Positions 7,430 to 18,826 of a stretch of DNA of 18,914 bases are shown here, piece by piece. Under the pieces are notes generated by a model. That model had not been told where the DNA came from. It did not search any database and worked only from the letters and a program-made list of their open reading frames with translations. The stretch comes from Candidatus Thorarchaeota archaeon (GTDB lineage Archaea; Asgardarchaeota; Thorarchaeia; Thorarchaeales; Thorarchaeaceae), in NCBI GenBank assembly GCA_004524445.1, contig SDNP01000043.1:1-18914 (forward strand), in the 5' to 3' direction. The number at the start of each line of letters is the position of its first letter. Position 1 is the stretch's first letter. The position numbers and the translations under genes were made by a program.

Positions 7430-7461
7430 TGACGACATCGTAATTGATGGAGCGAGTTCTA

Positions 7462-8736
7462 ATGGCAGATAAAGACGGTTACAGTTTTTCGAGTTGGACT
7501 TCGTTTATTGAAGAATCTCAAATCCGAGCACTCCTAAAGTATCACGTGGAGTACTATTACGCCGGTGGAAAACCCGGAATAATCCCCACAGATACTTTTG
7601 CTGACATCATGGCTGATTTGAGCGAAACATATAAAGAAAATCCAAAGATGGCGCTGGAAGATTTTAATTATGGGCCGACAGGAGGGCAGCCTTGGTTCCT
7701 AAAGACCCTTGCTCGAAGACTTTGTGATGTTCGCGGAATACCTATTGATTGTGATGATGAAGAATGGGAACTAGTATCCATTACGAATGGCTCTCAACAG
7801 GCTCTATACGCTCTGCTCGATACTCTCATTGACCCTGGTGATGTAATAATCACTCCATCACCAGCATATCTTGGGTTCTTGGTTCCCGCCGTCAAACTTG
7901 GCGGGAGAATCATAACCATCCCAACCGATCTCGATGGTATAATCCCCGAATATGTTGAAAAAGCGGTGCATGTTTCAAAAATGAAGTTTGGCAAGGTTCC
8001 AGATATTCTCTATGTGGTACCAGATTCAGATAATCCAAAGGGAACGACAATTCCTATGAAACGCAGAAAGGCGCTCTTTGATATCTGTGAGAGCCACGAT
8101 ATGTTATTGATTGAAGACTCCGCTTATGCCGAAATTCAATTCAAGAAGAACCCCAAGCCGATTAAGACACTTGACAAAGAGAACAAAAGAGTAGCATACC
8201 TCGGTACGACAAGCAAAGAGGCTGCAGTCCTTAGAGTCGGGTACTCTGTGATGCCAACTAATGTTCGAGAACAAGTTCTGAAAGATAAGGGCTACCTTGA
8301 CTTGTGTACATCCACACTAGTTCAGCGTATCTTGAATGAGTACTACATGAACCACATTGACGAGGCCATGAAGGTTGCAATTCCTGAGTACGAAAAGAGA
8401 TACAAGGCTATGGCAAAAGCAATGGACGCCTCATTCCCTGCCGGCAAGAGAACTGACCCAACGGGCGGCTTTTTCATCTGGTGGGAGAGCGAAAAGCCCG
8501 ACTTCAATAGCAAGAAATTCATGATGGATGTCGCGATTCCAAACGATATCCTCTATGTTCCTGGAGGTCCATTCTACCCCATCACAGGATATGACTTGAC
8601 CGACAATGGAAACGATTTGAAACCAACATCGCCGCAGCCTAATACCATGAGGCTAGGTTACTCTTATGCTGAACCTGACGTAATATCCGAAGGTATTGAG
8701 AAACTGGGCAATCTTCTCTCAGAAGAACTAGACTAG
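7462..8736 (+). CDS. PLP-dependent aminotransferase class I/II (LysN/ARO8-like 2-aminoadipate or aromatic transaminase subfamily)
   Basis: SQIRALLK...AGGKP, NYGPTGG, ITNGSQQAL, DNPKGTT, IEDSAY, PLP lysine in GTTSKEAAVLRVGY, GGFFIW and MRLGYS. ATG 7462 follows a GGAG RBS; the ORF is open from 7444. Confidence 0.92.
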   Translation: MADKDGYSFSSWTSFIEESQIRALLKYHVEYYYAGGKPGIIPTDTFADIMADLSETYKENPKMALEDFNYGPTGGQPWFLKTLARRLCDVRGIPIDCDDEEWELVSITNGSQQALYALLDTLIDPGDVIITPSPAYLGFLVPAVKLGGRIITIPTDLDGIIPEYVEKAVHVSKMKFGKVPDILYVVPDSDNPKGTTIPMKRRKALFDICESHDMLLIEDSAYAEIQFKKNPKPIKTLDKENKRVAYLGTTSKEAAVLRVGYSVMPTNVREQVLKDKGYLDLCTSTLVQRILNEYYMNHIDEAMKVAIPEYEKRYKAMAKAMDASFPAGKRTDPTGGFFIWWESEKPDFNSKKFMMDVAIPNDILYVPGGPFYPITGYDLTDNGNDLKPTSPQPNTMRLGYSYAEPDVISEGIEKLGNLLSEELD

Positions 8737-8782: not shown

Positions 8783-10501
8783 TCACACCATGAAGTTAAC
8801 GAAGAGCGTTGCTCCATTCTTCATGTCAGCCATATAGGCTCGTTTATACGGCCCAAATAGATCACTAAGCCCTGCATTTAGCGCCCATTCAATCCATGAC
8901 CATGAGGACTCCTGTGTGTTCTTTCCCTTTGCATATCTACCATATGCCCAAGACAGATATGTTTCAATCTTGAATTTCAATTCTAGTTTTTCTTCCTCCA
9001 CATGCTCCTCAGTTTCCTCGATTTCATTCTCAAGATTGTGTAATGAATCTAAGAGATCGTCATGAGTCCTCCAGATGATTCCTGCAAGATTTTGGATTGC
9101 CTCATTCATCTCATCATAGTTCTCTTTGTTTCTGCTCCGTGTGATCTTTCCCATTGCCCGAAACATCTCCCCTCTGTGGAGTACAGGAATATTATCTCTC
9201 TTAAGCTGGTTGGCCATGTCTTCACCCCACGGTGTGTTGAAGAAAACTCGAGGATATTTCACAAACATGGGGAATGGTATTTCTAATTTTCTTGCAATCG
9301 GTATGACTTGGGAATAATATGCAGTTTCTCCGGGCCCCCCTGCATGGGCGATGACAGGAATCGAGGAATCGATTGCGAATTGCCGAGAATCAACTCTGGG
9401 TGATAGAAAGGTAGCATGGTCCGATAGGTCTGGAGACTGAGCATCGACTTCTAATCGGATCTCTTCGCCGCAAAGGGGACATTCTCCCCTGAGTATTGCA
9501 TTGGAGCCATCCAGTTCATAGAATAGTTCTGTTCTTGCTCGATTACATGATTTCGCTTGGCATTCATAGAAGAATGGCACATAAGAGGTATCTCTTCCTC
9601 CCGCTCCTGGTTCAAAGCCGTTATTCCGAATCTTTTTTGTCGCTTCATCATGGATTCGAACAAAATCCTCTCGTATCTCTCTGGATAGAAGGAATTCCAT
9701 ACCAAGTGCCCATAGCTCACGTATCTCATCATCAGAAGCTGGAACTAGAGGTAATCCTAGATTACCTACAATGTTCACAATCCTTGCGATAATTCTCTGT
9801 GCCCATTCTCCTAGGGTATCCGAGTTAAGAAATGCTTGTCTGGTCACGGAGAGGGCATATTCAAGCCTTTCATCAAAGAGCGTTCGTGTATTTCCCTCAA
9901 GTACTTTGAATAAGGGACTATACCCCGCTCTAATACTCTGCTCTATTTCCTCATACCAATGATACTCAGGTAAAGGCACAACACTTACAGGTGAGAATTC
10001 GTATTCCTGCGGGATTGGAATACTCACTATATTTCCACTTGGTCCCATCAGGGGCGTTCTTGTATGGGTCAGTTCACTCTGAACTATGTCATAATCAGCA
10101 ATACAATAGAAGGGAACGAGAGATGATTCTTCAGTCGAATTCAGACGCGCCAATCTTTCTGCTGTGACCGCCTTATTCAGAATATAGCAGGGGCCACCCA
10201 GAACAATGCTTTGATGAGCGGCCTCAACAGCACCCTGATTTAGTTTTTCAATAGTTCTCTTAACTTTCGGACTCAGACATCCTAGCTTGCGGTTGATTCT
10301 TGTCAAGGCTGCCTGCAATCTAACGATTCTATCATCAGTATGCCACTCCTGCTTAGCATACTTTCTTCGCAACTTAACTGCACGGTTCCTCAAGTCATTC
10401 ATCATAATAGGTGGATCATTGTAGAGTTCAGATGCCAACCCCTCGTGTTTGGATTCCCAAATATAGTCTAAGTATGCTTGGGTGATTATCCTCTTGGTCA
10501 C
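8783..10501 (-). CDS. bshC: Bacillithiol biosynthesis cysteine-adding enzyme BshC homologue
   Basis: AVEAAHQSIVLGGPCYILNKAVTA (compare BshC tGqQaglfgGPlYtiyK), VPFYCIADYD, FLSPRVDSR and HAGGPGETAYYSQ (compare GGPgEiaYwaQ). Size 572 aa; directly downstream of bshA. Confidence 0.85.
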   Translation of the reverse strand: MTKRIITQAYLDYIWESKHEGLASELYNDPPIMMNDLRNRAVKLRRKYAKQEWHTDDRIVRLQAALTRINRKLGCLSPKVKRTIEKLNQGAVEAAHQSIVLGGPCYILNKAVTAERLARLNSTEESSLVPFYCIADYDIVQSELTHTRTPLMGPSGNIVSIPIPQEYEFSPVSVVPLPEYHWYEEIEQSIRAGYSPLFKVLEGNTRTLFDERLEYALSVTRQAFLNSDTLGEWAQRIIARIVNIVGNLGLPLVPASDDEIRELWALGMEFLLSREIREDFVRIHDEATKKIRNNGFEPGAGGRDTSYVPFFYECQAKSCNRARTELFYELDGSNAILRGECPLCGEEIRLEVDAQSPDLSDHATFLSPRVDSRQFAIDSSIPVIAHAGGPGETAYYSQVIPIARKLEIPFPMFVKYPRVFFNTPWGEDMANQLKRDNIPVLHRGEMFRAMGKITRSRNKENYDEMNEAIQNLAGIIWRTHDDLLDSLHNLENEIEETEEHVEEEKLELKFKIETYLSWAYGRYAKGKNTQESSWSWIEWALNAGLSDLFGPYKRAYMADMKNGATLFVNFMV

Positions 10502-10512
10502 TCAATTCTCTC

Positions 10513-11685
10513 CTATGTTTGAACCGCTTCTTCGAAGACTTGTTCATATTTCGGCACAATTATGTCCGCTGAAAAATTTTCCTTGACCCTCTTTCTTCCA
10601 GCTCGTCCGAGTTTCTTTAATCTTGCATCATCATCAAGAAGGGTAACAATGGCATGAGCAAATTCGTCTTTTTCATAACCTTCGGTGACCCAACCGTCTT
10701 TTCCAGGTCTGACCAATTCCGGTATTCCGCCAGCCGGAGTAGTGATGACTGGCAATCGTGACGCCATTGCCTCCAAGATTACTAGAGGCATCCCTTCCTG
10801 CAAAGAATTCATCAAGAGCATATCCGAGGAGCACATAATCTCATGCACATTACTTCTGATTCCTAGTAGGTGTACCTTCTGGCAAAGATCCAGTTCCTCT
10901 ATTTTACGTTCGACTTCCACTCTCTTCGGTCCATCTCCTACCAGAACAAGCCGGGTGTCTGGGTTTTCATCCACCACCATCTTCATTATTTCTACTAACT
11001 CAACAACACGCTTAACTGCGCGGAAGTTTGAAACATGAAGTAATATCCTCTGATCGGGATTGATTGCCTCTGCATCCTCCTCTTTTCTCACAGATACACA
11101 ACCACTTTCAACCACAAGCCGTGTGCCCTCTTCCCGTTTGTACTTCTCTATATCTATGAAGTTTGGAATGACATGAATTTCTCTCTCAATACCTAATTCT
11201 GTGTACGCGCTCTCTCGAAGATATTCAGCTACAGTGGTGACGGCATTTGCTTGTTGAACGGTATGTTTTACTACTGGCTGGTATGCCGGGTCTAGACCCA
11301 GAGAATGTACATCTGAACCATGCATAGTTATGACATAAGGTATCCCAACAATTTCTCTTGCCATGTATGCAGACAACGCGTGAGGAATGGCGTAGTGCGA
11401 GTGAATCAAATCCAACTTAGAGTTATGAGTGACTTGAACCATCTTTGACGCAAGTGCCATCGAATAAGGGGGACAGATATCCTTGAATAATGGATAGTCT
11501 ATGGTATCGACAAGATCTACATATGCTCCTCGGGTGTCCTCCCACATCAAAGAGAAAGGTCTTTGATATGTTACAAAGTGGATTATGTGACCTCTCTCAA
11601 CAAGATGTCGTCCCAATCGAGTGGCAAGATATCCTGAACCACCAACTGAAGGATATAGATTGACTCCTATTTTCACCCTTGTCAA
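10513..11685 (-). CDS. bshA: N-acetyl-alpha-D-glucosaminyl L-malate synthase BshA (GT4 glycosyltransferase)
   Basis: KIGVNLYPSVGGSGYLATRLG, YPLF..PPYSMALASKM, HSHYAIPHA, TMHGSDV and HVSNFRAVKRV are BshA-specific blocks. GT4 motif EGMPLVILEAM is present. Confidence 0.93.
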   Translation of the reverse strand: MTRVKIGVNLYPSVGGSGYLATRLGRHLVERGHIIHFVTYQRPFSLMWEDTRGAYVDLVDTIDYPLFKDICPPYSMALASKMVQVTHNSKLDLIHSHYAIPHALSAYMAREIVGIPYVITMHGSDVHSLGLDPAYQPVVKHTVQQANAVTTVAEYLRESAYTELGIEREIHVIPNFIDIEKYKREEGTRLVVESGCVSVRKEEDAEAINPDQRILLHVSNFRAVKRVVELVEIMKMVVDENPDTRLVLVGDGPKRVEVERKIEELDLCQKVHLLGIRSNVHEIMCSSDMLLMNSLQEGMPLVILEAMASRLPVITTPAGGIPELVRPGKDGWVTEGYEKDEFAHAIVTLLDDDARLKKLGRAGRKRVKENFSADIIVPKYEQVFEEAVQT

Positions 11686-11792
11686 CTCTGGTATCGTATC
11701 AAGACTACCTGCCTTTAAGGTGCTTGGTGCGGGAAGACGGACCTTCTAAGCATTAGTAAAACTTGAATAGTGACCAGCTCCGATTAATCAGT

Positions 11793-12455
11793 ATGGCGGA
11801 TTTGGGTTCTATTCTTGTGATTGCTGCGCATCCCGATGACGAGTGCCTGGGCGCTGGAGGTACAGTTAGAAATCATACTAGGGCTGGTGTTCCAGTAGAT
11901 CTCCTTTGCTTAACCGGAAACGACATCCGAAATGAGGAGCTGGCTAGCGCTAGTGATATATTGGGTGTCAGAAATTTATACCCCTCCAACCGCGATGACT
12001 TTGATATCGATAGGAGTCTTTCCGACTCAGTAGTTGAGGTTATCCTTGAGTCCCGTCCCACTGCTATAATCACACACTCTGACGAGGATTACAATCGTAA
12101 CCATAGAATATGTGCAGAGATTGTTAACGACTCCATTGAATGGGCATCGCACAAGACAATGTATGAAGAACCTCATAGAGTGGAACAAGTACTGCAGATG
12201 GAAATCAATACCCTCCATTCGCATCCTCACTTTATAGTTGACATCACAGCATCTTACGATGAGTCTTTACTGGCACTCAAGAAATATGAATCTCAACTAT
12301 CAAAAGCTGATGAGTTCTATTTGGATTTCTATGATGCACGAACACGACTGAGGGGTGTTCAAGGCGCTTGTTCACGCGCAGAGGCATTCACTGTTTCGAC
12401 TCCTCGCCATGCAGGTCCCTTTTACCAAAAGAATAGCCGCGAACTATTGATTTAG
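11793..12455 (+). CDS. bshB: PIG-L/LmbE-family deacetylase, probable BshB (GlcNAc-malate deacetylase)
   Basis: ILVIAAHPDDECLGAGGT, RNEELASASDILGV, VDIT..YESQ and RG..AEAF. Divergent from bshA. The second motif reads DYNRNH instead of DxHPDH. The ORF is open from 11763. Confidence 0.8.
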   Translation: MADLGSILVIAAHPDDECLGAGGTVRNHTRAGVPVDLLCLTGNDIRNEELASASDILGVRNLYPSNRDDFDIDRSLSDSVVEVILESRPTAIITHSDEDYNRNHRICAEIVNDSIEWASHKTMYEEPHRVEQVLQMEINTLHSHPHFIVDITASYDESLLALKKYESQLSKADEFYLDFYDARTRLRGVQGACSRAEAFTVSTPRHAGPFYQKNSRELLI

Positions 12456-12883
12456 GCTTGCTTGTCTCCGCCCTCTACCTTCTTCCTTCTAGCTGCTAAC
12501 AAGGCTTTGAGTTCGCCCATCATCGTCATTCCGCCGCCTCCGCCACTAGGTGGCCCTCCGCCTCCTGCACTGGCTGGTGCCGGACCTGGCGCAGCACCAA
12601 CGCTTGGTGATGTTGGTGGACTGGGTGTGGATGACCCTACTTCTGCTGCAGATTCTGCAGCAACACTACTTGCTCTTGAGCTCAGAGAAGATATTCGGGA
12701 ATCCATGCTACTGACATTCTCTTCTAACGAGCTAATTCGGTTCTCAAGCTGACCTATAGCATCAACAATTTTTCCCGTTATGATGCTGACTACTTCACCA
12801 AGTTGACGTAGCTTTTCTTCCGTTGGGTCCTTTAAGGCCCATTCAAATTCTTCCATGATGAAATCGTCATCGTCTTCAGCCAT
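12452..12883 (-). CDS. Coiled-coil / proline-glycine-rich protein with C-terminal WH2/C/FAB-like helix; putative actin regulator
   Basis: Order of parts: MAEDDDDFIMEEFEW, heptad coil, STPSPPTSP..APGPAP..GGGGPPSGGGGG, MMGELKALLAARRKKV. ATG 12883 has a GGAG RBS and a TTTATA box near 12926-12931. CDS status is well supported; the function is inferred. Confidence 0.7.
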   Translation of the reverse strand: MAEDDDDFIMEEFEWALKDPTEEKLRQLGEVVSIITGKIVDAIGQLENRISSLEENVSSMDSRISSLSSRASSVAAESAAEVGSSTPSPPTSPSVGAAPGPAPASAGGGGPPSGGGGGMTMMGELKALLAARRKKVEGGDKQA

Positions 12884-12966
12884 TGGACTTGGCTCCGTTC
12901 TTTTTACAGTTTGATTTGTTTGCGCTATAAAGCTTGTTTGCACAAGACCAATCTATTCTCCGCTTA

Positions 12967-14346
12967 TTATTTCTGGGAAGCGATTGTCTTCCTCACGACT
13001 TGCTCACACGAGTCCAATATTTCATGAACCCGATCATCAGTGGTTGCTTCGCACGTTATTCGTATGACCGGTTCAGTTCCGGATGGTCTTACAAGAACCC
13101 ACCCATCATCTAGAACCAATCCGATGCCATCTACTGTAATAACATCTTGAATTCCATCTATCTCTTTTGGTAATATCCCCGAGAGCTCCTGCATGACCAC
13201 TTTCTTCTTATCATTTGCGACTTGAAGCTTTGTTTTCAATAGTGGGTATATCGGAATCTCAGAAACCAGCACTCCAAAACTCTTTCCTGTGTGCGCCATC
13301 ATCTCAAGTATCTTGCATGCAGCCAAGAAAGGTTCTGGCGCCATATGAAATGAAGGGAATATGAATACTCCACACGCTTCTCCACCCATGATACCGCCCA
13401 GCTCCTTTAACTTCACAGCAACTTGGATATCGCCAACAGGGGTTCGAACGATATCTCCCCCAGTCTTCTGAACTATTTCATCGAGAACCTTTGAACTATC
13501 AACGGTGGTAACAACTGTGCTTCCTTTCTCTTTCTTCAGAAGTGTCTTTGCCAGTAGGGCGATAGTTCTGTCCCCTCTGACAACCTCTCCCGTTTCCGTG
13601 ACAAACACACCTCTATCTGAATCTCCATCATGAGCTATCCCCAGATCTGCTCCCTGTTTCCTCACCATATGAATAAGGGCCTGAAGTGTTTCTTCTTCGG
13701 GTTCAGACTCTCTTCCAGGAAAATGCCCATCTGGCTGTCCGTTTATTGTTACAACCTTGCACCCTAGCTCCCTCACTAGATAGGGCGTTAACACGCATGC
13801 TGCTCCATTTCCTGGATCAACAATCACCTTGAACTCCTTCCGGTTTATTGCTTCACTATCACAGTGATCTATGATGTCAACGATGTGTTTCTCCACTGCA
13901 TCACCCAATACAGCTTCTTGACCTAATTCGTTCCAAGGTGCTACTTTAAATCCTCCAGATGTGTAGAGTGTTTCGAGTTCTTTCTCCATCTCTGATGTAT
14001 ATCCCATGCTGTCTCTATGCCAGAATTTGATGCCTGTGTACTCTGGGGGATTATGCGAAGCCGTCACCATAACGCCCGCATCAAATCCCATTTTCTTGGT
14101 CAGATATGCTAATGTCGGTGTTGGAACTATGCCCAATCGGGTAACATCAACGCCTGTGGACAGAACCCCTGCTACGAATGCATCGACGACCATTTTCCCA
14201 GTAGTTCGAGTATCCCTTGCAATGAGGATTTTTCCTGTTTGAAGATATGTGCCTAATGCCTTCCCCAATTTCATTGCCATATCTAAGGTGAATTCGGAAC
14301 CATACACTTTCCGTACACCCGTTGTTCCAAACAAATCGTTAGCCAT
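12967..14346 (-). CDS. glmM: Phosphohexomutase (phosphoglucosamine mutase or PMM/PGM)
   Basis: LFGTTGVR, phosphoserine loop TASHNP, metal loop DGDSDR, sugar loop GGEACG and VRPSGTEP. Substrate specificity cannot be resolved by eye. Confidence 0.85.
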   Translation of the reverse strand: MANDLFGTTGVRKVYGSEFTLDMAMKLGKALGTYLQTGKILIARDTRTTGKMVVDAFVAGVLSTGVDVTRLGIVPTPTLAYLTKKMGFDAGVMVTASHNPPEYTGIKFWHRDSMGYTSEMEKELETLYTSGGFKVAPWNELGQEAVLGDAVEKHIVDIIDHCDSEAINRKEFKVIVDPGNGAACVLTPYLVRELGCKVVTINGQPDGHFPGRESEPEEETLQALIHMVRKQGADLGIAHDGDSDRGVFVTETGEVVRGDRTIALLAKTLLKKEKGSTVVTTVDSSKVLDEIVQKTGGDIVRTPVGDIQVAVKLKELGGIMGGEACGVFIFPSFHMAPEPFLAACKILEMMAHTGKSFGVLVSEIPIYPLLKTKLQVANDKKKVVMQELSGILPKEIDGIQDVITVDGIGLVLDDGWVLVRPSGTEPVIRITCEATTDDRVHEILDSCEQVVRKTIASQK

Positions 14347-14468
14347 TCTTTTCACATGTCTTTTATCTCAACTTTGAAACAAAAAGGTAACTGAGCGCAG
14401 GGCGAAGTATCCAGAATACGAATATATGCGATATCTAACTTCTACAGGAAAAAAGCAGAGGTCATTGG

Positions 14469-15387: not shown

Positions 15388-15434
15388 GTTAAGCCCAATC
15401 TTTTCACCCAAAACGAGACTCGGAATTGAATCAG

Positions 15435-15983
15435 ATGAGCAGTACGTACGATTACCTATTTAAAGTGGTCATTCTCGGCGAAGGCGCGGTAGGAAAAACC
15501 GCAATCGTCACACGCTTCTCTCATGGCTTCTTCCGCACCGATTACAAGACCACGATTGGCTCTCAGTTTGCTGTCAAGAACATCGATGTACATGAGGGTA
15601 GCGAGAACCTAACTGTGAAGCTGCAAATATGGGACGTAGCTGGGCAAAGCAGATTTCAGATATTGAGGCCTATGTACTATCGTGGGTCAAGCGGTGGTGT
15701 ACTGGTTTTTGATGTGACTCGACGCCGAACATTTCTTCTTCTGGATGAATGGCTCAATGAGCTGGAAAGAGCGGTTGGGAAGAAGATTCCCTTAGTGCTG
15801 GTTGCAAACAAGACAGACTTGCCCGACCGTGTAGTTGAGCCAAGAGAGGGCAAGGAATTTGCAGACGCACGCGACATGCCTTACGTGGAGTCATCAGCAA
15901 AGACGGGCGAAGGGATCGTTGACATCTTCGAAAATTTAGGAAAAACCCTCGTTAGTACAAGACGCTCAAGCGACCGATTTTAG
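15435..15983 (+). CDS. Rab-like small GTPase (Ras superfamily, eukaryotic signature protein)
   Basis: G1 GEGAVGKT, G2 YKTTIG, G3 WDVAGQ, G4 NKTD and G5 SSAK. RabF-like blocks IGSQF, KLQIW, RFQILR, YYRGS and LVFDVT, with N-terminal YDYLFKVV. No C-terminal Cys. Confidence 0.95.
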   Translation: MSSTYDYLFKVVILGEGAVGKTAIVTRFSHGFFRTDYKTTIGSQFAVKNIDVHEGSENLTVKLQIWDVAGQSRFQILRPMYYRGSSGGVLVFDVTRRRTFLLLDEWLNELERAVGKKIPLVLVANKTDLPDRVVEPREGKEFADARDMPYVESSAKTGEGIVDIFENLGKTLVSTRRSSDRF

Positions 15984-16085: not shown

Positions 16086-16676
16086 ATGACCGATCGAAGT
16101 GAGCTCTATCCAGTAAATACAATCCCTCCTCTTACGTGGGCTATGCAGTTATACTTCAAGAAAGACTTCAAATTCAAAGAGCCGGGGACAATAGAATTGG
16201 TCTTTCCCGCAGGCGATCATAAAGAGCTAATGCAGAAAAAAGGTGAACATAGAGTGCATCTATGGTTTACTGACCAGAAGGTGTTTGTAAGAGCTCGATG
16301 TACTCATAGCAGTAAATGTGACTTCAATGGTACAAGGATACAGGGGGGTGATCGTGAGGGCTTGATGAATATCCCTTGGGAGGGCACTGATGACCGATCA
16401 TTCTTCCGTGCCATCACGAAGTGGTTGCTCAGAATCAATCTTGAATTTGTGCCGCTAATTCGCTCCCTAACTACTGTCTGTGATCGATATGTCCAGATTC
16501 CTATGACTACTAAATACGGGCGAACATTCGAAAAATTTGACGAGTATAGACGTAATCGGTGGCCAAAGGATGCCAAACCGAATGACCGGCCTCGCTTTCT
16601 GGAGGAAGTACTTGTCCGGGTCTGTTTCTGGATTCAATCTGCAGCAGATGTTGGCGCTTTACATCCTCCTGACTAA
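16086..16676 (+). CDS. Hypothetical soluble protein (196 aa)
   Basis: Long ATG-started ORF filling the gap between Rab and the protease, with globular composition. A TTTATG box lies near 16045. No family recognised. Confidence 0.75.
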   Translation: MTDRSELYPVNTIPPLTWAMQLYFKKDFKFKEPGTIELVFPAGDHKELMQKKGEHRVHLWFTDQKVFVRARCTHSSKCDFNGTRIQGGDREGLMNIPWEGTDDRSFFRAITKWLLRINLEFVPLIRSLTTVCDRYVQIPMTTKYGRTFEKFDEYRRNRWPKDAKPNDRPRFLEEVLVRVCFWIQSAADVGALHPPD

Positions 16677-16855: not shown

Positions 16856-18826
16856 GTGAGAGATTTGAAAAAACGCGGATACAAGTATCTAGCTTGCTCT
16901 TTTGCGTTCTTATTCTTAACAGTGGCAATTGCCGGTCTAGTTGTGGCCCAGCCAAAGGGCACCACAATTGTCACCCATAGCTGGGACCAGAACGGTAACA
17001 AAATTGTTGATGAATTTGAGCCAAAATTAGCAGAGCTAAAACAAAACGAACGCGTATCTGTGATTGTGACTGCCTCTCAAAGCTTGGAAGATATGCTACC
17101 AATGCTGGATGCAGATATCAGATACAGATACGACGCAATTGGAGCTCTATCCATAGAACTTCCTCGTCGAAATTTGGACATTCTGAGTACTTCCCAGGAT
17201 GTCTTCAGAATATCAGACGCACATCTCGAAGTGCAAGCAACCCTTGATAGTGGACTGCCGATAGTGCAGGTTCCAGAGGCCTATCAATCCTACAATTATC
17301 GAGGTGAGGGAATCGTCATTGCTGTTTTGGACACGGGAATTGACAACACTCATGTTGACTTGGATGATAATGACGCCTACAACGCCTACAAGGTCATTGC
17401 CTTCAGGGATGTTGTAAACGGTCAAGATGATTTCTCGACCCCGGTTGTAGCATATGATGATAATGGACATGGCACCCACTGTTCTAGCATCGCTGCCGGA
17501 TCCGGTGAAGGCGACTCACGATATCGTGGAGTTGCATATGCGGCACAGCTTGTTGGAGTAAAAGTTCTTGATGCAGACGGTGGTGGAACCCTAGAGGGTG
17601 TTCTTGCTGGCATGCAGTGGATAATTGATTACCGGACCACGTATAGCATTGATATCGCCTCAATGAGCCTATCAACCAACCCCTCCAGTTCATGCGATGG
17701 TACAGATGAGATTTGTTTGATGGCTGACTCCATAATGGAGAACGACATCGCCCTCTTTGTTGCTGCCGGCAATCATGGTCATCCTGAACGTCTGTATGGC
17801 TACAACACCATTGGTTGTCCGTCAGCATCCAGGTATGCTATTACAGTAGGATCTGTTAATGATGACGGAACTCATTCAAGCTTCAGTAATGAGGGCCCAA
17901 CCGGTGATGGTAGAATCAAGCCTGAGATTTGTGCTGCTGGCTCATCGATAACAGCAGCCGAGGCCAATAGTGGAAGCGGTTACGTCACGTATAGTGGGAC
18001 GTCTATGGCAACACCCATGGCTGCCGGAATTGGCGCACTACTTCGACAGGCTGACTCTAGCCTATCTTCCTTTAATGTCAAGGAGGTGCTCAAGAGTACC
18101 GCCATGGATATGGGTGAGACCGGCGAAGACAACACATATGGCTGGGGTATCGCACAAGCAAAAGCTGCCTTAGACTATGTCACTGGTGGCGGAACCGAGC
18201 CTACTGACAATCCTCCTACTGCATCAATCTATGCTCCTACAGAAGGAGAAACAGTGAGTGGTACGTATAGAGTCAAGGTTTCAGCCAGCGACGACAATGG
18301 CGTTTCCACAGTCGAAGTGAACATCGACGGAGGGAACTGGATTGACATAACTAATAATGTTGATTCGGATGGCTACTACTACTATGACTGGGACACCACC
18401 GGTGTAGCAGATGGCGCCCATACAATCAATGCTCGAGTCACTGACTCAGCAGGTCAAACAGCTTCTGATAGTGTTGGAGTTACAGTGAACAATGGTGGAG
18501 GTAGCACTGGTGATACCATGCATGTTGCAGACATCTCCTACTCTGCCGTCTATCGAGGTCCTAACGCATGGTTGACCATTGAAGTCACAATTGTTGACTC
18601 GAATGGGAACTCAGTTAGCGGTGCTGATGTCACTATAAGCTTGGAATACCCTGACGGAAGCATTAGTACCTATACTGCAACCACAGGATCTAGTGGTGTT
18701 GCCATTTTTGATTTTGGCAAGTCTCCGAAGGGTACCTATACTGTTAGCGTGACAGGCGTATCTCATAGCAGTTACACATATGATGAAACTGCTAACGTCG
18801 AAACATCTGAAACCTTTACAATTTGA
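16856..18826 (+). CDS. Secreted subtilisin-like (S8) serine protease with propeptide and two C-terminal Ig-like domains
   Basis: Signal peptide (KKRGYK plus hydrophobic core) and I9-like propeptide. Triad VLDTG / HGTH / GTSMATP with oxyanion AAGN. C-terminal Ig-like repeats (PTASIYAP..VSG..WDTTGVADGAHT; MHVADI..VSGADVT). No C-terminal anchor. Confidence 0.95.
   Translation: MRDLKKRGYKYLACSFAFLFLTVAIAGLVVAQPKGTTIVTHSWDQNGNKIVDEFEPKLAELKQNERVSVIVTASQSLEDMLPMLDADIRYRYDAIGALSIELPRRNLDILSTSQDVFRISDAHLEVQATLDSGLPIVQVPEAYQSYNYRGEGIVIAVLDTGIDNTHVDLDDNDAYNAYKVIAFRDVVNGQDDFSTPVVAYDDNGHGTHCSSIAAGSGEGDSRYRGVAYAAQLVGVKVLDADGGGTLEGVLAGMQWIIDYRTTYSIDIASMSLSTNPSSSCDGTDEICLMADSIMENDIALFVAAGNHGHPERLYGYNTIGCPSASRYAITVGSVNDDGTHSSFSNEGPTGDGRIKPEICAAGSSITAAEANSGSGYVTYSGTSMATPMAAGIGALLRQADSSLSSFNVKEVLKSTAMDMGETGEDNTYGWGIAQAKAALDYVTGGGTEPTDNPPTASIYAPTEGETVSGTYRVKVSASDDNGVSTVEVNIDGGNWIDITNNVDSDGYYYYDWDTTGVADGAHTINARVTDSAGQTASDSVGVTVNNGGGSTGDTMHVADISYSAVYRGPNAWLTIEVTIVDSNGNSVSGADVTISLEYPDGSISTYTATTGSSGVAIFDFGKSPKGTYTVSVTGVSHSSYTYDETANVETSETFTI

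Follow-up and report, generated by a model that had tools for sequence, protein, structure and literature searches.

Bacillithiol (L-cysteinyl-D-glucosaminyl-L-malate) is a protective thiol that combines a sugar with cysteine, and it has so far been measured in bacteria only. A group of three genes in an archaeon of the Candidatus Thorarchaeota (contig SDNP01000043.1, assembly GCA_004524445.1) raises the question of whether this thiol could also be made by Asgard archaea. The window that we analysed is the entire contig (C55 in our genome set), 18,914 bp in length, from a 2.79-Mb metagenome-assembled genome (MAG) with a completeness of 90% and a contamination of 5.4%. The three genes encode a BshA glycosyltransferase, a deacetylase of the LmbE/PIG-L type that resembles BshB, and a BshC-like protein; an initial annotation of the window had read them as a complete bshA/bshB/bshC pathway yielding bacillithiol or a variant of it. 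We examined the identities of the genes, the fold and conserved residues of their products, the synteny of the locus and the co-occurrence of the genes among Asgard genomes. We consider it likely that the three genes together encode a functioning route to bacillithiol or to an analogue very similar to it, and the cluster is probably functional.

The bsh genes and their products

In the pathway that we propose, BshA would transfer N-acetylglucosamine (GlcNAc) from UDP-GlcNAc onto L-malate, the acetyl group would be removed by the zinc deacetylase of the LmbE type to give glucosamine (GlcN)-malate, and the archaeal-type BshC would add cysteine onto the free amine of GlcN-malate. The genes bshA and bshC would be co-transcribed, with bshB read divergently from a shared spacer. 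The same three families, with the same order of reactions, constitute the bacterial system of BshA, BshB1 (or BshB2) and BshC in Bacillus subtilis, B. anthracis, Staphylococcus aureus and Deinococcus. Malate and cysteine as substrates are inferred here, as are the identity of the product and the part that it would play as a thiol buffer or as a cofactor.

The product of bshA scored 379 bits with the curated equivalog model TIGR03999 (cut-off 273.7), which was the sole NCBIfam hidden Markov model (HMM) to exceed its cut-off; the runner-up scored 155 bits (cut-off 409). The protein has the two domains of a GT-B fold enzyme, an N-terminal domain of glycosyltransferase family 4 (GT4; PF13439, residues 14–181) and Glycos_transf_1 (PF00534, residues 201–366). 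Its best solved relatives were the BshA proteins of B. anthracis, B. subtilis and S. aureus (216–257 bits), and the alignment with the B. anthracis enzyme revealed the common N-terminal motifs YPSVGGSG, HYAIPHA and HG(S/T)D. L-Malate is the predicted acceptor. Since BshA is a clear equivalog-level member of its family, GlcNAc-malate is favoured as the first intermediate.

The deacetylase, encoded by the sole PIG-L gene of the genome, matched the Pfam family PIG-L with 70.5 bits (cut-off 28.2), and its best solved relatives were the BshB1 structures 2IXD and 6P2T (B. cereus BC1534 and S. aureus BshB). An alignment with BC1534 and other Asgard BshB copies showed that the zinc ligands were kept, namely the His and Asp of the AHPDDE motif (AAHPDDE) and the distal His, which is the last His of DYNRNH.

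The BshC-like protein matched PF10079 (Rossmann-like_BshC) over residues 23–414 with 66.1 bits (cut-off 27), and the Pfam scan of this protein gave no match to the C-terminal BshC domain. A HMMER scan of 1.84 billion representatives returned 46 sequences below E 1e-30; the named members of this close set came from Thorarchaeota, Heimdallarchaeota and one 'Bathyarchaeota', and canonical BshC was reached only at E 1e-10 to 1e-6. An AlphaFold (AF2) model built from 62 sequences had a pLDDT of 95.8, and its top Foldseek match was B. subtilis BshC (4WBD; E 6e-20, TM 0.66–0.70). When the predicted structure was aligned with 4WBD by VIA-align, a Z score of 33.6 and a root-mean-square deviation of 3.4 were obtained over 473 residues, covering model residues 1–570, and the modelled fold includes the C-terminal helical part of BshC. 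The second structural match was the class I lysyl-tRNA synthetase (LysRS) of P. horikoshii (1IRX; Z 20.4, 303 residues), where the match ended at the LysRS catalytic domain (chain residues 3–319). The structures of GluRS, MetRS and CysRS gave Z scores of about 10–12. We regard the BshC-like protein as a class I aminoacyl-tRNA-synthetase-like enzyme.

Residues were compared over 62 BshC sequences, 35 of the archaeal and 27 of the bacterial type. Q97, K110, D138, R323, G389 and Y395 were invariant in both types and all were kept in the Thorarchaeal protein; E392 of the GPGE motif was nearly invariant across the two. Both types therefore have a common catalytic core. The archaeal-type proteins contain in addition a cysteine-rich, zinc-knuckle-like insert around the invariant Arg323. 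Its cysteines C314 and C341 were kept in 35/35 archaeal-type sequences and C344 in 34/35, while the fourth ligand position varies. Of the 27 comparison sequences, 26 lack the insert; the other one, P0314, carries the cysteines and clusters with the archaeal-type sequences in the BshC tree.

The class I LysRS of the same genome (contig C10) carries knuckles of the form CPECG...ECPECG. In class I LysRS, an RVD motif comes after a CxxC...CxxC knuckle, an arrangement collinear with residues 329–371 of the BshC-like protein, and BLASTP aligned this segment (ECPLCG...SPRVD) with LysRS residues 220–255 (ECPECG...TWRVD) at E 0.01. These similarities suggest that the insert relates to the second CxxC knuckle of class I LysRS. 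The relation is suggestive only, since it draws on structure and one short BLASTP match, and a comparison at profile level between the BshC alignment and the genome's LysRS was not significant (hhalign probability 9%). Unlike LysRS, the BshC-like protein is encoded in the bsh operon. One could imagine that the archaeal-type BshC is the older form, derived from an archaeal class I LysRS with its zinc knuckle retained, in which case bacillithiol-type thiols would be archaeal in origin and the bacterial form a streamlined derivative; we hold this to be a doubtful proposition.

The genes bshA and bshC are adjacent on the minus strand with a gap of 11 nt, as had been proposed from the open reading frames (ORFs) (see Table 1 for all coordinates). 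A GGAG Shine-Dalgarno-like motif overlaps the bshA stop codon, and the GTG start of bshC lies exactly 11 nt beyond that stop. This feature of the junction supports an operon in which bshA and bshC are co-transcribed and their translation is coupled. An alternative bshA start at GTG 11676 would give a BshA of 387 aa. The mechanically called PIG-L ORF begins at TTG 11763 (11763–12455, plus strand), which would leave 77 nt to bshA; the deacetylase start codon conserved among eight related loci is ATG 11793, so that the divergent spacer measures about 107 nt, close to the 100 bp estimated at first. Conservation within the spacer among the eight Thorarchaeaceae loci was limited to two blocks, CCTTTAAGG (11712–11720) and CTTGAATAG (11762–11770), each situated about 25–40 nt upstream of one of the two divergent start codons. 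These blocks may be promoter or regulator sites, and they are candidate TATA-like promoter elements, one per gene.

Host and history of the cluster in Asgard archaea

The contig is native Thorarchaeota DNA. The closest BshC and BshA homologues overwhelmingly carry the NCBI name Candidatus Thorarchaeota. Other genes of the contig encode a GlmM of the archaeal type, a GTPase of the Ras family and a winged-helix protein that gave a weak EAP30-like match, in agreement with the assignment to an Asgard archaeon made initially. Synteny was studied in 20 regions cut from relatives and searched with the window proteins. The entire order of about 15 kb (TrmI, HerA-like ATPase, u134, NUDIX, u365, PyrF, aminotransferase, BshC, BshA, BshB, GlmM, hydrolase, Ras, u196) recurred in 8/8 loci of the Thorarchaeaceae (family f1 of our set), including loci on contigs of 1.5 and 3.2 Mb. 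A contig search with BshC matched the same-genus MAG only.

In principle, the cluster could have entered the MAG through bacterial contamination or chimeric assembly, or could have been transferred very recently from bacteria that produce bacillithiol (BSH). The window coincides with a single 18.9-kb contig, its MAG has some estimated contamination, and a separate Heimdall-named family, f27, does carry a bacterial-type bshC-bshB-bshA cluster. Against this stand the recurrence of the gene order together with the archaeal GlmM, the Ras-type GTPase, TrmI and HerA in all eight relatives, the fact that every top homologue is from Thorarchaeota, and the long, well-supported branch that parts the archaeal-type BshC clade from all bacterial BshC. 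Because the whole order recurs in 8/8 relatives, on long contigs as well, we exclude contamination, chimerism and recent import, an explanation whose probability we put at next to nothing; the suspicion that the contig might be bacterial or chimeric was thus not borne out.

Within a sample of 251 Asgard genomes, PF10079 was found in 126 and BshA above its cut-off in 112. BshC-like genes were present in 55/59 genomes of family f1, 25/26 of f5, 17/19 of f12, 9/10 of f14, 3/3 of f26 and 5/5 of f27. The corresponding numbers for BshA, counted by family at E <= 1e-40 with all or nearly all of the matches in these families above the cut-off, were 57/59, 25/26, 17/19, 10/10, 3/3 and 5/5. The two genes co-occur in families f1, f5, f12, f14, f18, f25, f26 and f27. 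The largest other family, f9, had no BshC-like gene in its 54 genomes, and BshA matches in only 2/54, which were weak and of a generic GT4 kind. In family f22 a BshC-like gene was present beside the same aminotransferase as in the window, and no BshA exceeded the cut-off. The trio is clustered in f1, f12 and f26, and bshA and bshC are adjacent in f5. LmbE/PIG-L genes occurred in 200 of the 251 genomes, with or without BshC, and PIG-L was dropped as a distribution marker as being too widespread.

In the BshC tree, the archaeal-type sequences formed one clade (SH-aLRT 97–100) with a long branch to the bacterial type, and the f27 copies fell on the bacterial-type side of that branch. The BshA, BshB and BshC trees yielded the same family groups, where those of BshA and BshB were rooted only on the bacterial-type f27 copies. 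Since there is one archaeal BshC clade and the family groups match, we conclude that the cluster represents an old archaea-specific branch, inherited vertically within the Thorarchaeaceae, and not a recent import from Firmicutes. With regard to transfer or inheritance, vertical descent held within families; a single Asgard-wide origin did not, and the bsh genes were acquired by Asgard archaea at least twice.

The second type is found in f27 (NCBI name Heimdallarchaeota; loci L043–L045 in genomes G135, G239 and G233), where bacterial-type bshC-bshB-bshA genes score above the curated cut-offs, and related canonical BshC was seen in Bathyarchaeota on contigs of 1.5–1.9 Mb. The nearest relatives of the f27 genes outside Asgard archaea were those of Bathyarchaeota, followed by Ignavibacteria and Melioribacter. 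These clusters likewise have archaeal hosts and adjacent bshC, bshB and bshA, and they pass the bacterial cut-offs (BshC Pfam 269–280, BshB1 222–236 and BshA 405–424 bits). In contrast to the Thorarchaeal BshC, their BshC proteins are without the cysteine insert and group with bacterial sequences. We regard them as a second, independent origin.

The product of the proposed pathway

Several observations weigh against bacillithiol as the product. The BshC-like protein scored 66 bits with the curated equivalog model TIGR03998, whose cut-off is 265.8, and the deacetylase scored 86.9 bits with the BshB1 model TIGR04001 (cut-off 182.5) and 58 with the BshB2 model (cut-off 195). The first His of the HxDH motif, which we take to be the catalytic His of MshB and BshB, was replaced by Asn (DYN[RK]xH) in 9/9 Thorarchaeaceae BshB sequences; it was retained in families f12, f14, f26 and f27. 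In the 90%-complete genome, no match was found to BrxA/B (PF06491) or BrxC (PF11009), and the best match to Bdr/YpdA (TIGR04018) in the genome search reached 76.8 bits, with a cut-off of 339.9. RefSeq omits most MAGs of such archaea. A 2025 survey of RefSeq reported no archaeon with the full pathway (PMC12719100), and no archaeon has yet yielded a thiol of the bacillithiol kind (PMC7278568). Reconstitution of the BshC reaction has not been achieved for the bacterial enzyme either (PMC5790435); the statement that BshC adds cysteine therefore derives from Bacillus genetics only.

The cluster could also make a related but different conjugate: the GlcN-malate scaffold would bear an amino acid other than cysteine or a cysteine in modified form, or the aglycone would differ, the specificity of BshC and BshB having shifted. 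The distance of both proteins from their equivalog cut-offs, the altered catalytic motif of BshB, the deep clade of the archaeal-type BshC with its cysteine-rich insert beside the invariant Arg323, and the absence of known BSH-specific partner enzymes from the genome searches would all fit such a shift. BshA at equivalog level argues instead for GlcNAc-malate as the first intermediate, all BshC-invariant residues are kept, and strict co-occurrence with BshA is the very signal by which bacterial bshC was first identified (PMC5790435). We judge a different conjugate to be unlikely, yet serious enough to be kept in mind, and a bacillithiol-type product is our best reading. The initial claim of a complete pathway stood with respect to gene content; only BshA scores above its curated threshold, and BshB and BshC are divergent archaeal variants. 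For this last reason, the phrase 'bacillithiol or a variant' could not be narrowed, and the claim was over-confident as to the product and also as to the redox role.

BshA at equivalog level, the BshC fold, the invariant residues, the zinc ligands and the co-occurrence of bshA and bshC are common to the Thorarchaeal and the bacterial system. All three genes are clustered in Thorarchaeota, whereas in Bacillus bshC is unlinked from bshA-bshB1, as the initial annotation had noted and as reported (PMC5790435). The Thorarchaeal BshC stands in a separate archaeal clade with an insert of three to four cysteines, in BshB the first His of HxDH is replaced by Asn, neither Brx nor Bdr was found, and the product is a predicted one.

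The synthesis of glycosylphosphatidylinositol (GPI) anchors likewise starts with two enzymes of the PIG-L and GT4 types. The GT4 protein and the PIG-L deacetylase might accordingly serve glycolipid or glycan synthesis (a GPI-like GlcN-lipid, compare eukaryotic PIG-A and PIG-L), with the BshC-like protein in an unrelated, synthetase-like role; the occurrence of LmbE/PIG-L genes in most Asgard genomes irrespective of BshC is consistent with this. However, there was no match to the PIGA Pfam family, the models for GlcNAc-phosphatidylglycerol synthase and MshA gave 68 bits each against 379 for BshA, and the BshC-like gene accompanies bshA across families, with its translation coupled to that of bshA. 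We think it very unlikely that the cluster serves glycolipid synthesis.

The mycothiol system of Actinobacteria (MshA, MshB and MshC) follows the same logic as the Thorarchaeal cluster, with a GT4 transferase, an LmbE deacetylase and a class I synthetase-like cysteine ligase. The scores with its models were far from the cut-offs, however (MshA 68 against 462 bits, MshB 27 against 224), and its ligase is structurally distant from the BshC-like model in comparison with BshC and class I LysRS: MshC was only a weak Foldseek match (E about 0.2) and CysRS gave a Z score of about 10–11. No MshD-type acetyltransferase is present in the Thorarchaeal cluster. Both the GPI-like and the mycothiol-like readings were rejected because of the HMM scores.

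A role of the thiol as a redox buffer, as originally put forward, was not backed by known partners: the searches of the genome for bacilliredoxins and Bdr/YpdA gave no match above cut-off, and only generic DinB_2, TrxR and CoADR-like proteins came to light. The two proteins with the best scores for the Bdr model (84.9–86.9 bits when the ORFs were scanned whole) are similar to thioredoxin reductase (TrxR) and keep its CxxC motif. There are also two flavoproteins resembling coenzyme A disulfide reductase (CoADR) or NADH oxidase (Nox), and the one on contig C64 has a single active-site-type Cys. As the TrxR-like proteins keep CxxC and only one CoADR/Nox-like protein has such a Cys, none was accepted as a clear Bdr analogue. 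The search for DinB-type S-transferases gave five DinB_2 proteins, none of which matched a curated NCBIfam model.

Neighbouring genes and biological significance

Table 1. Positions of the bsh genes, their elements and two neighbouring genes in the window
Feature	Positions	Strand	Basis
Class I/II aminotransferase	7444–8736	+	Tail-to-tail with the BshC-like gene in f1
BshC-like protein, putative cysteine-adding enzyme, 572 aa	8783–10501	-	GTG start; PF10079
Zinc-knuckle-like insert Cys314/Cys319/Cys341/Cys344 around invariant Arg323	9470–9562	-	Alignment
bshA-bshC junction, 11 nt, GGAG ribosome-binding motif	10502–10512	-	Direct sequence reading
BshA, predicted GT4 UDP-GlcNAc:L-malate N-acetylglucosaminyltransferase, 390 aa	10513–11685	-	TIGR03999
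Putative divergent promoter spacer bshA/bshB	11686–11792	.	Two conserved blocks
BshB-like LmbE/PIG-L zinc deacetylase, 220 aa from conserved ATG 11793	11793–12455	+	PIG-L HMM
Archaeal phosphoglucosamine mutase GlmM, second copy	12967–14355	-	TIGR03990, 536 bits

In 8/8 Thorarchaeaceae loci, the GlmM gene flanks the trio at its bshB end, at 0.4–0.7 kb from bshB. One other archaeal-type GlmM above the cut-off was present in the genome (G000 C28:78310-79635), making two in total. The copy adjacent to the bsh genes may feed the UDP-GlcNAc pool on which BshA would draw.

The aminotransferase on the other side of the trio was 74–79% identical over most Thorarchaeaceae loci and 92% in the same-genus MAG, and its tail-to-tail position relative to the BshC-like gene recurs in family f22 (L046 6500-7762; L047 8963-10198). 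Its nearest solved relatives were kynurenine or multi-substrate aminotransferases of Pyrococcus and Thermococcus. A functional link to BshC was dropped and the gene retained as synteny, the enzyme resembling a general archaeal aminotransferase of the kynurenine (KAT)/aminoadipate type.

At the bshB stop there is an overlap of 4 nt with a 163-aa coiled-coil ORF (12452–12943, minus strand), which was recognisable in the same-genus MAG only and is therefore probably outside the pathway. Farther along the contig, a Ras-family small GTPase (15426–15983, plus strand; Pfam Ras 164 bits, 78–92% identity within the family) is always followed by a conserved 196-aa protein without a Pfam match (16086–16676, plus strand), and the two may constitute a GTPase-partner pair. 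The subtilase at 16856–18826 (plus strand; Peptidase_S8 191 bits), which has C-terminal Ig-like domains, is probably a secreted or surface protease.

The core idea of bacillithiol synthesis in these archaea is already known, having been published in outline and annotated by NCBI, where Thorarchaeota proteins are named BshA and BshC. Rawat and Maupin-Furlow (2020; PMC7278568, section 13) listed 39 InterPro hits each for archaeal BshA and BshC, mostly from Asgard archaea, and suggested BSH synthesis in those archaea; none of the other papers on Asgard archaea that we consulted mentions bacillithiol. What our analysis adds is the archaeal BshC clade with its LysRS-like cysteine-rich insert, the BshB with an altered motif, the tight clustering of the genes and the finding of no known recycling enzymes.

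The archaeal-type BshC, with a cysteine-rich insert by an invariant active-site Arg, is a fresh candidate for solving the BshC reaction, and this zinc-knuckle form might be a tractable version of the enzyme for revealing its activated cysteine donor. Should bacillithiol really be made by Thorarchaeota and several Heimdall-type lineages, the archaea closest to eukaryotes would have, as a major buffer for redox state and metals, a thiol that is regarded as bacterial, and this would bear on the tolerance of these organisms, mostly from anoxic sediments, to oxygen, electrophiles and metals.

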